Assembly (NCBI RefSeq): GCF_006345805.1
Contig: NW_021827027.1
Coordinates: 1-11,346 of the forward strand
Reading direction: 5' to 3'
DNA: 11,346 nucleotides
Source of the DNA: Octopus sinensis
Lineage: Eukaryota
In this document: piece after piece, positions 6,964 to 10,785 of the stretch
How the letters are laid out: every line of letters starts with the position of its first letter
How positions within the stretch are numbered: the first letter of the stretch is position 1
Translations under genes and position numbers: made by a program
The notes under the pieces: model-generated
What the model saw: the letters and a program-made list of their open reading frames with translations, nothing else
Databases searched by the model: none
What the model was told of the DNA's origin: nothing

Positions 6964-7367
6964 AACACACGACCACACACACCACACAAACTTGTCATCA
7001 CACAAAACGTCATACAAATAGACAAGAAATTTGCCCCAATGACTAATAAAAAAAAATTGATCATGAAAAGGGAGACAAGCATCGAAAAGTTGCTACTCAA
7101 GAATGACGTTCCTTGATTCATTGATTCATTTTTTTATTCACACAAATTTGAGAAACCCCGTGAATAAAACGAGTCTGTTTTCCAAAATGGAGGCAAACAC
7201 CTCTCTCCATGTGATTGGCTTGAAGAATTGTTAAGACACTAGGCTATTTTCTTACGTATCTTAACATGAAACCAATGAAACTTTAATTCACAATTAAAGA
7301 AATTATATCCACCAATGCAGTGTTGAGCATTCATTTCCATCATTCAACATTTACTTTTGTGTTTGTG

Positions 7368-7644
7368 TCATCATCATCATCATCATCATCGTTTAACGTC
7401 CGCTTTCCATGCTAGCATGGGTTGGACGGTTCAACTGGGGTCTGGGAAGCCGAAGGCTGCACCAGGCCAGTCAGATCTGGCAGTGTTTCTACAGCAGGAT
7501 GCCCTTCCTAACGCCAACCACTCTGTGAGTGTAGTGGGTGCTTTTTATGTGCCACCGACACAGGTGCCAGACGAGGCTGGCGAATGGCCACGCTTGGATG
7601 GTGTTCCATTGATGTTCATCGATTTAGATTTGATTTGATTTGAT
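7368..7644 (-). mobile_element. Family B retroposon, copy B2
   Basis: (CAT)n at 7368-7390, perfect palindrome CCATGCTAGCATGG at 7407-7420, ggatgcccttcctaacgccaaccact and ggtgctttttatgtgccacc. Confidence 0.9.
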
Positions 7645-8135
7645 ATATATATAGATAGATATATGAGCATAATACCATAAATTCCATATAAGACAATGGA
7701 ATTTCTTGCTCTCTTCTTTCAATTTGTCTTAACACTTCTACTTCAAGCCTTGCTTCCTTTTTTTCTCGTGTTCTATTTTGACTTCTTTCAGTTATTTTCT
7801 ACATTTTCCTCTCAAAGCTTTCCTTCTGTTTCTTCTTGTGCTTCTTGTCATTTTACACCATTTCTTCTCTCTAACTTTCATTGTACCTTAATTTAATCTT
7901 ATGATATTTGTCTTCACACTGCAATTTGAAATCAGATAGTTTTTACCTAAGAACATATTCCCTTATTTCACTTACAATTAACTACAGTACATCTAAACAT
8001 TTAGGAATTTTTTTTACAAAATCATCTTTTCCTTTTATTTCTCTACCACTCTCATTATCTCACTAGCTTTCCTTAATCTCTGTAACTCATTCATATACTC
8101 CATTATTTCTGTCTGTCTGTCTCTCTGTCTTTCCA

Positions 8136-8427
8136 TTTATTTTTTTTTATGATCAGGCTATCAGATGTTGCTACATGTTGCTGGTCACAATGCAAACAGC
8201 CTTCAAATGACACCTCCCAGTTGGCTAAGCAAGCAGGCCAACAGAAGAAAGAGTGAGAGAAAGTTGTGGTGAAAGAGTTCAGCAGGGATCGCTACCACCC
8301 ACTGCCGGAGCCTTGTGGAGCTTTAGGTGTTTTCGCTCAATAAACACTCACGACACCCAGTCTGGGAATCGAAATCACGATCCTACGACCACGAGTCCGT
8401 TGCCCTAACCACTGGGCCATTGCACCT
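8136..8427 (-). mobile_element. tRNA-derived SINE, family E
   Basis: Minus-strand head GGTGCAATGGCCCAGTGGTTAGGGC with A-box at 8409-8419 and B-box-like ATTTCGATTCC at 8365-8375. GC-rich body ends at an A-rich tail (T-run 8136-8148 on +). Confidence 0.85.
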
Positions 8428-9056: not shown

Positions 9057-9380
9057 ATCATCATCATCGTCATCATCATTGTTTAAAATCTGCCTTCCAT
9101 CCTAGCATGGATGTAACGGTTTCACAAGAGTCAGCCAGGCAGAAGCCTGCACCAGACTTTTGCGACTGTTTTGGCAGGATTTTTACAGCTGGATGCCCTT
9201 CCTAACACCAACCACTCAACAGAGTGGACTTAGTACTTTTTACATGGCACAAACACCAATGAGGTCAGTTTTGGCAAGGTTTTCACACCTGCATGCCCTT
9301 TCGAATGCCAACCACTTTACAGTGTGGACTATGTGCTTTTAAGTTGCACCTGCACTGACAGGGTCACCAACTACTTGCAA
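9057..9380 (-). mobile_element. Family B retroposon, copy B4, with 100-bp internal tandem duplication
   Basis: (CAT)n tail and ccatcctagcatgg. Units 9168-9267 and 9268-9366 each carry atgccctt...ccaaccact...gtggact...ctttt. Confidence 0.85.
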
Positions 9381-9410: not shown

Positions 9411-9626
9411 ATTGGTTTCAAGTTTTGGCACAAGGCCAGCAGTTTTGGGGGAGGGGTTTCGCCAATGACATCAAGCCCAGTACTTTGACTGGTACTTGTT
9501 TTATCGACCTCGAAAGGATAAATGGCAATATTCACACTGACAGGATTTGAACTCAGAATGTAAAGATGGACAAAATGTTGACAAGCACTTTTCCTGGTGT
9601 GCAAATCTTTCTGCTACCTTGCCGCT
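9411..9626 (-). mobile_element. tRNA-related SINE, family C (diverged)
   Basis: Minus-strand GCGGCAAGGTAGCAGAA head and B-box GAGTTCAAATCC (9543-9554), then atcctttcgaggtcgataaaacaagtacc...aagtactgggcttgat. Confidence 0.75.
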
Positions 9627-9713
9627 GTATATGTACATACTTATATTGATGCTTGTTTTTATGTTGAGTTATAATAGAAGCAAGTGATATTTTCGTAGAA
9701 CACATTATCTTCT

Positions 9714-9752
9714 ATCTGTCTCAATCATGAGATCTGTCTCAATCATAGATCT
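9714..9752 (+). repeat. 18-bp tandem duplication
   Basis: atctgtctcaatcatgag, atctgtctcaatcatag, atct. Confidence 0.8.
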
Positions 9753-9772
9753 ACATATGCACACATATATAA

Positions 9773-10058
9773 ACGGCAGGCTTCTTTCAGTTTCAGTCTA
9801 CCAAATCCACTCACAAGTCTTTGGTCGGCCTGAGGCTATAGTAGAAGACACTTGCCCAAGGTGCCACGCAGTGGGACTGAACCTGGAATCATGTGGTCGG
9901 GAAGCATACTGAGGTAGAAGTTCAGTTTTTGATTTTGAGGCATGGCTAGCAGAAAAAGACATGAGAAAATGCAGAGCCAGGAGTGGCTGTGTGGTAAGTG
10001 GCTTGCTTGCCAGCCACATGGTTCCTGGTTCAGTCCCACTGCATTACCACACAGCCAC
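9773..10058 (-). mobile_element. SINE family A, copy A4 (5' module only; head split by inverted insertion)
   Basis: 9773-9906 aligns to A3 ~6162-6295. The head resumes at 10044 (ttaccacacagccac). The 3' module is absent. Confidence 0.9.
9908..10043 (+). repeat. Inverted copy of 10531-10666
   Basis: 136 bp, 5 mismatches and no gaps against the reverse complement of 10531-10666. Includes ~70 bp of non-SINE flank. Confidence 0.97.
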
Positions 10059-10208
10059 AACAAAAATATTGCTGAGAGTGACTTTGAAGTTTCAAACTGC
10101 TTGACTTTCATCAGGTAAAACGTGCACACACACAAACACACACACTCACACACACAAACACGTAGTTACCTTACTATTACCTCACAATCAAATTTTCCTT
10201 CATATTGG

Positions 10209-10596
10209 CTCTTTACTCTCTTTTACTGGAGCTCTGCCTTTAGCCGAAGAAATTGACCCCATTACTTGCGGGATTTGTAGGCCCCAGGTACTGTACGTTA
10301 TTCTATCGGTCTCTTTTGCCGAACTACTAAGTTACGGGGATGTAAACACACCAGCATCAGACACAAATGTATACACATACATACATACATATATATATAT
10401 AATATATATATATATATAAATATATATGTACATATATACGACAACTTCTTTCAGTTTCCATCTACCAAATCCACTCATAAGACTTTGGTCAACCTGAGAC
10501 TCTAGTAGAAGACACTTGTCCAAGATGCCATACAGTGGGACTGAACCTGGAACCATGTGGCTGGTAAGCAAGCCACTTACCACACAGCCACTCCTG
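10209..10596 (-). mobile_element. SINE family A, copy A5
   Basis: A-box (ccacacagcca on +, 10580-10590), B-box (gggactgaacc on +, 10537-10547), internal TA tract, and a 3' module with two ~30-bp deletions. Confidence 0.92.
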
Positions 10597-10678
10597 GCTC
10601 TGCATTTTCTCATGTCTTTCTCTGCTAGCCATGCCTCAAAACCAAAAACTGAACTTCTACCTCAGTGTGTTAGTCTGT

Positions 10679-10740
10679 TTGTGTGTGTGTGTGTGTCTGT
10701 GTGTGTGTCTGTGTGTGTGTTTATTTTTGGTGTGTGTCTG
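10679..10740. repeat. (TG)n microsatellite
   Basis: Directly visible, with TC interruptions. Confidence 0.9.
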
Positions 10741-10785
10741 TTTTTCTAGTTCTGTCATTCTCTCACTCTTATTAACTGCTCTTAT

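Follow-up and report, generated by a model that had tools for sequence, protein, structure and literature searches.

A 137-base inverted copy of neighboring DNA in the head of an Octopus sinensis SINE, probably left by a single template switch

We found that one copy of a tRNA-like SINE of Octopus sinensis, here called A4, is interrupted in its head by a tract (9907-10043) that is a reverse-complement copy of 10531-10667, and that was probably placed there by one switch of a growing strand onto the opposite strand 0.5 kb away, followed by its return. Several features of the locus were observed directly: the inverted identity between the tract and its source, the reach of the copy into non-repeat DNA, the loss of 6 bases of A4 without any target-site duplication, the confinement of the copied flank to a single locus, and reads over the left junction. 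The window in which the tract lies, i.e., the whole stretch of 11,346 bases that was analysed, is a complete unplaced contig (C3498) of an assembly (G000) of 2.72 Gb in 13,516 contigs. Microsatellites are abundant in it, and one tRNA-like SINE is present as five copies or fragments. The stop-to-stop frames of at least 90 amino acids found in the window are mostly low-complexity translations of microsatellites and repeats, and ARAGORN and Rfam scans of the whole window gave no match. Elsewhere in the window, 7368-7665 belongs to a young repeat that is very abundant: at least 7468 candidate places were counted, and many of the copies match at 97% identity. The last 63-69 nt of this copy (window about 7537-7605) occur elsewhere as tandem arrays. 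The window also contains a 73-nt direct repeat (9168-9240 and 9268-9340; 79% identity; family D7), whose copies are 100 nt apart.

With positions in the SINE counted along copy A5, which served as the ruler (10596 down to 10445, 152 nt; reference R), the parts of the locus are as follows.

9781..9906, minus strand: 3' piece of SINE A4, SINE bases 27-152, 87% identical to A5 10445-10570
9907..9977, plus strand: inserted copy, part 1, non-SINE, reverse complement of the single-copy flank 10597-10667
9978..10043, plus strand: inserted copy, part 2, A5 SINE bases 1-66 in the orientation opposite to A4, 97% identical to A5 bases 1-64, with mismatches at 10009, 10026, and 10042
10044..10058, minus strand: 5' piece of SINE A4, SINE bases 6-20, identical to A5 10577-10591
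10059..10444, no strand assigned: spacer between A4 and A5, with a CA run (10125-10161), a very high-copy repeat (10298-10369), and an AT run (10377-10438)
10445..10596, minus strand: SINE A5, full head and body, 152 nt, the reference R
10530..10669, plus strand: source arm of the inverted repeat, i.e., the template of the copy, delimited by the inverted-repeat alignment
10665..10745, no strand assigned: GT-rich microsatellite starting where the copied tract ends, found by repeat search (family D4)

The high-copy stretch of 72 nt in the spacer (10298-10369) reaches a depth of tens of millions in the read contigs and equals the SINE in this respect, and the AT run lies between it and A5; this stretch may be the second half of the SINE or another element.

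An inverted-repeat search aligned 9905-10044 with the reverse complement of 10530-10669 over 140 nt at 96% identity, with the arms 485 nt apart, and blastn returned the same pair as 137 nt at 96.35%. Each position p pairs with 20574-p, and the arms differ at 9907 (T/C, at the junction), 9932 (A/G), 9954 (A/G), 10009 (G/A), 10026 (T/A), and 10042 (C/T), five of these mismatches lying within 9908-10043. Position-by-position alignment thereby reproduced the count given by an earlier reading made from the sequence alone (hereafter the sequence-only reading), which had reported five mismatches in 136 between 9908-10043 and 10531-10666. That reading had also described the copy as the head of A5 together with some 70 bp of its upstream flank, and the parts map agrees: 9978-10043 corresponds to SINE bases 1-66 and 9907-9977 to the flank, so the copied tract (9907-10043, paired with 10531-10667) takes in the first 66 bases of A5 and about 70 bases beyond them. 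The read contigs end at the equivalent of 10567, which agrees with a SINE boundary that makes 10597 the first base outside the element. Bases 21-26 of A4 are absent, and these 6 bases of its head are replaced by the inserted tract; A5 has agccac (10571-10576) between the stretches matching the two A4 pieces, in accordance with the 6-bp bracket that had been noted in sister copies. The direction of copying follows from A5 being complete and A4 interrupted: the source must be A5 together with its flank, and the copy the tract in A4. The inserted tract is devoid of SINE bases 67-152, of a tail, and of a target-site duplication. Ordinary retrotransposition does not fit an insert that has no target-site duplication and no SINE 3' part and whose source lies 0.5 kb away; the proposal that the insert is not an ordinary SINE retrotransposition is thus upheld, given also the 6-base loss and the 70 non-SINE bases.

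We determined by whole-genome search that the 73-nt flank 10597-10669 occurs at two places in 2.72 Gb, both of them the two arms, which argues against a chance match. The sequence-only reading had called for a BLAST search of 10597-10666, to see whether this flank exists only at the two positions or is a high-copy 5' extension of a SINE subfamily. It proved exclusive to the two arms in the genome, and the reads give one contig for it at 1x depth. No allelic or paralogous copy was found in the assembly for 9560-9785, 10044-10300, 10597-10669, or 7050-8330, the other matches of these queries being microsatellites or repeat families. In the reads, a single contig per run lies over 9954, at depths of 37.5 (X1), 24.4 (X16), and 25.3 (X3), and the contig of the flank at 9650-9743 has depths of 39.6 (X1) and 25.2 (X16). 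As the depth of the arm is close to that of the single-copy flank, the arm sequence is low-copy in the reads.

The junctions were sought in five runs (X1, X2, X3, X16, and X17), in the form of Logan contigs with a word length of 31 letters; contigs of this kind are cut off where they enter a high-copy repeat, and absence cannot be shown by them. One X3 contig of 131 nt (record 28; depth 25.3) aligns to 9877-10007 and departs from the window only by 9954 A>G and 9965 G>A. At 9907 and 9932 it retains the bases specific to the insert (T and A, respectively), and it joins the last 30 bases of A4 to the insert across the left junction. Thirty letters on the A4 side are one below a rule of 31 letters per side, yet they are the maximum reach of a 31-word contig into a repeat; the same 30 letters are also present in a few other SINE copies (records 17 and 27). 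Support for the left junction in DNA reads is good, short of decisive, and comes from a contig in one of the five runs. X1 and X16 each hold a single arm contig (130 and 136 nt, respectively) on 9908-10007 with two differences, including G at 9954; the 30 or 36 letters left over in it are not those of A4, and it is covered as deeply as the single-copy flank. On the simplest reading, these contigs would represent the A5 arm continuing into the GT microsatellite. The pattern in X1 and X16 could mean that the insert is absent there or that one branch was dropped by the contig builder and, as contigs cannot show absence, we claim no polymorphism. In X2 and X17, no contig was found over 9917-9970. 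At 96% likeness or above, no contig in these runs crosses 10043|10044, the right junction, or extends past 10069: positions 10052-10069 are uncovered in X1 and X3, cover in X16 and X2 ends at about 10069 (96% likeness), X3 has a piece within 10070-10096, and 10097-10118 are uncovered in all four runs. The sequence-only reading had stated that reads failing to support the junctions would speak against the event; the left junction is contained in the X3 contig, while the right one is without contig cover at 96% or above. Its argument that the five mismatches count against an artefact is weaker than claimed, since 9954, an A in the window, is G in the X3 contig.

As for the ancestral state, a pre-insertion allele was sought in the read contigs and in the assembly, and none attributable to the locus was found. 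Loose ends following 9906 in X16, X2, and X3, which read AGCTAC..TTACC..CCACTCCTG, were considered as candidates and rejected, being ordinary SINE heads of other loci without the continuation into the right flank of A4. Judging by sister SINE copies rather than by an outgroup, the pre-insertion allele would read ...gggaagca, 6 bases, ttaccacacagccacaacaaaaat... The arms have diverged by 3.7% (5/136), as against 12.7% between A4 and A5. To place individual changes on one arm or the other, we compared them with SINE copies in a random 1-Mb sample of the genome, made up of ten 100-kb stretches from ten large contigs. At SINE base 32 the insert has G, found in 1 of 90 other copies, and A5 has A (59/90), whereas at base 65 the insert has C (67/98) and A5 has T (30/98). 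These frequencies suggest that base 32 was changed in the copy and base 65 in the source. With differences on both arms, the event is likely old and not recent, and such changes fit elapsed time better than copying errors alone. The A of the window at 9954, where X3 has G, would be a later change or an assembly error.

In the mechanism that we propose, a stalled fork or a resected break would have exposed a 3' end reading ...GGTAA at A4 base 20, and this end would have served as a primer at 10530/10531 by means of a 1-nt match. Synthesis on the complementary strand would then have proceeded rightwards for about 137 nt up to the edge of the GT microsatellite (about 10666-10669), where the new strand would have dissociated, to rejoin A4 at 9906 with a match of at most 2 nt (CA, if 9907 was then C). 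In four-point notation, the order along the plus strand would be 1-4-3-2. In a fork-based version the leading strand would jump to the lagging-strand template behind the fork, and in a break-based version fold-back priming at a double-strand break, with a 485-nt loop, would be followed by end joining; the two versions have an identical sequence outcome. The microhomology is 1 nt at the right junction (T at 10044). At the left junction it consists of CA (9905-9906) followed by a mismatch at 9907, and counts as 2 nt only if the T at 9907 was C. The template lies 485-760 nt from the insert. Because A4 and A5 have the same orientation, homology-guided repair between them would yield a direct, not an inverted, copy. 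The sequence-only reading had proposed a local template switch or repair event of the polymerase theta, MMBIR, or FoSTeS type; the kind of event is supported by the inverted local copy, but the choice among the three is not made by the sequence. Folded as single-stranded DNA, 9860-10065 is predicted to form a stem of 9868-9906 with 10004-10042 (-48.5 kcal/mol; z = -6.3 relative to shuffled sequences). This hairpin-capable stem of 39 bp, made of the A4 body and the inserted head, exists because of the insertion. The event would thus have produced both a long-range inverted repeat of 137 bp and a local stem of 39 bp, with no function implied.

The 1-Mb sample also gives an idea of how frequent such structures are in this genome. 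We collected inverted pairs of at least 80 nt and at least 90% identity lying no more than 3 kb apart, and obtained 18, six of which have arms seen only twice in the sample. In whole-genome searches, four of these six turned out to be repeat families with 195 to 2073 candidate copies, while the other two are complete genome-wide only as their own two arms. These two locus-only inverted duplications are:

G000:C2:70096564-70096771 with 70097207-70097415: 208 nt, 94%, part of the arm being also a short dispersed repeat
G000:C7:40052619-40052847 with 40055047-40055275: 229 nt, 93%

Locus-only inverted duplications therefore amount to roughly 2 per Mb in this small sample and, with two further cases in 1 Mb, the A4 insert is one of a class and not rare here.

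Several other origins of the tract have to be weighed against a template switch. End joining at a break in A4 might have captured a free DNA fragment from the A5 region, such as an over-replicated flap or a reversed-fork piece, in which case the inversion would be a matter of chance. The 0-2 nt of junction microhomology are typical of end joining, the source was left intact, and copy-paste capture at breaks is among the events described in PMC11724301. Yet the captured fragments described in that source originate genome-wide, whereas here the source lies 0.5 kb away in cis, and a tract that ends exactly at the edge of a microsatellite is easier to read as the product of polymerase dissociation. 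We therefore regard fragment capture as unlikely, although it is not separable from a template switch by sequence alone. Rather unlikely, too, is an assembly artefact, that is, a chimeric long read or a misassembly in a short unplaced contig. The window is the whole of such a contig, and it is imperfectly polished, given that all four read sets examined there (X1, X16, X2, and X17) depart from it at 9703/9704 by an insertion or substitution of 1 nt, probably an unpolished indel in the contig. There is, moreover, no left-junction contig in X1 and X16, nor cover of the right junction in any run. Against this stands the X3 contig (131 nt, depth 25.3), in which A4 sequence is joined to the insert and which has the insert-specific bases at 9932 and 9907; this contig makes a pure assembly artefact unlikely. 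X3 is perhaps the assembled sample, but its contigs were built independently of the assembly, and the structure differs from the zero-spacer palindrome of the missed-adapter kind. That the tract is instead an independent insertion, either of a SINE subfamily with a 70-base 5' extension or of the terminal inverted repeats of a DNA transposon, is scarcely credible. Four of the six look-alike inverted repeats in the 1-Mb sample are indeed repeat families, but the flank of A5 is found only at the two arms in 2.72 Gb and as one contig at 1x depth in the reads, and the insert has neither SINE bases 67-152 nor a target-site duplication. A DNA transposon or MITE was specifically rejected, the arms being unique to the locus as against the 195 to 2073 candidate copies of the four look-alike pairs.

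Two further explanations invoke a retroelement. In one of them, a read-through transcript from upstream of A5 would have been reverse-transcribed by internal priming at a nick in the A4 head, made possibly by the endonuclease of a retroelement targeting the SINE head. The geometry, with a primer ending in ...GGTAA-3' extended on a sense template, fits equally well. We nevertheless hold this RNA-mediated route to be very improbable: an RNA copy could enter any of very many SINE heads, which leaves the 0.5-kb proximity unexplained, the insert is without a tail, a 3' part, or a target-site duplication, and the position of the break does not recur in other SINE copies. In the other, the endonuclease of a retroelement that targets the SINE promoter would have broken the A4 head, and the aborted insertion would have been healed by copying nearby DNA or a transcript. 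This seems quite improbable but, if true, head-targeting elements would seed local inverted duplications genome-wide. With regard to recurrence, no split at SINE bases 20-27 was found among 133 other SINE matches in the 1-Mb sample, which is small. A pattern for heads that cease to be SINE after base 20 gave 335 matches, versus 1 for the control, and none of the 30 loci examined out of these 335 has an insert between bases 20 and 27; 25 of them are small-indel variants, and the remaining five are an internal deletion, a SINE dimer, a truncation, a short palindrome, and an isolated 15-mer. SINE fragments starting at base 26 were rejected as splits, their heads being too diverged to align, as were those ending at base 64, which are internally deleted or diverged copies. 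Since the sampled heads show no recurrent break site, the endonuclease and RNA-mediated readings stay at low probability.

Some individual SINE copies encountered along the way deserve a separate mention. At one locus (L140, region of G000:C2:10353605-10353625), head bases 1-20 are followed by a 23-nt inverted copy of bases 13-35 (91%), which overlaps the last bases of the head and forms a small palindrome at the position where the head of A4 is broken. At another (L128, region of G000:C1:102881614), head bases 2-27 are followed by a complete second SINE in the same orientation, i.e., a dimer. Contigs of X1, X16, and X2 also contain joints of 9892 or 9897 to 9978, 9980, or 9983, in which an antisense SINE, broken at base 36 or 41, abuts a forward SINE at its 5' end; such joints stem from other loci, where SINEs are nested head to head, and breakpoint 9897 recurs among them.

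Template switching, the reading that we favor, can be set beside several known ways of copying nearby DNA into a damaged site. Polymerase theta snap-back insertions usually measure from a few bases up to some tens and are copied from near the break; the A4 insert resembles them in combining a deletion with a templated insertion copied in cis from flanking DNA. In the four-point template switch, as described in PMC5453318 (Loytynoja and Goldman 2017), one switch-and-return puts the reverse complement of a nearby fragment in place of the original one. A4 shares with it the replacement of 6 bases by a nearby reverse complement and the creation of an inverted repeat. The fragments copied in great apes are reported to have a median of 12 nt and a maximum of 128 (PMC7954356; Walker et al. 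2021), and the longest one reported from human haplotype assemblies measures 318 bp (bioRxiv 10.1101/2021.11.26.470150). The 137 nt of A4 are far above the usual size, yet inside the range known from these reports. The template is 485-760 nt away here, compared with about 100 nt within which the published searches are described as having been made. A distance of 485 nt is near the upper limit of what PMC7954356 gives as short range (tens to hundreds of nt). A further difference is that the ancestor is deduced here from sister SINE copies, not from an outgroup. If it resembled those copies, with 6 bases between the two A4 pieces, a single switch-and-return would explain the whole difference.

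The insertions termed MMB-TI, of MMBIR type, are described as inverted, close to their template, and bearing microhomology at both junctions (PMC8421209; Osia et al. 2021). A4 is similar in having an inverted insertion near an intact template. It differs in its microhomology, a single nucleotide at one junction and, provided that 9907 has changed after the event, 2 nt at the other, and in its distance of 485-760 nt to the template, whereas the MMB-TI detection tool is described as covering 100 bp and up to the read length. For yeast, fold-back insertions of 2 to about 150 bp, most of them below 14 bp, are described at double-strand breaks, where one end of the break primes on its own strand and the other end is joined with 0-5 bp of microhomology (PMC11724301). 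The priming in the yeast system, as presented in that work, involves a 10-bp imperfect inverted microhomology beside the break and a 41-nt loop, in contrast to the 1-nt match and 485-nt loop at A4.

The A4 insert is thus a long, well-resolved case of a known mutation class and not a new system, with no sign of function, and as a single case it is otherwise unremarkable. As its target is a SINE with many sister copies, no outgroup is needed to read where both junctions lie, which 6 bases were lost, and in which direction the copying went. A tract of 137 bases taken from 0.5 kb away is, at the same time, outside the search range of published template-switch detectors. The two further locus-only inverted duplications in the 1-Mb sample hint that medium-sized template switches may regularly supply inverted repeats, and hence hairpin-forming DNA or RNA, in this repeat-rich genome.
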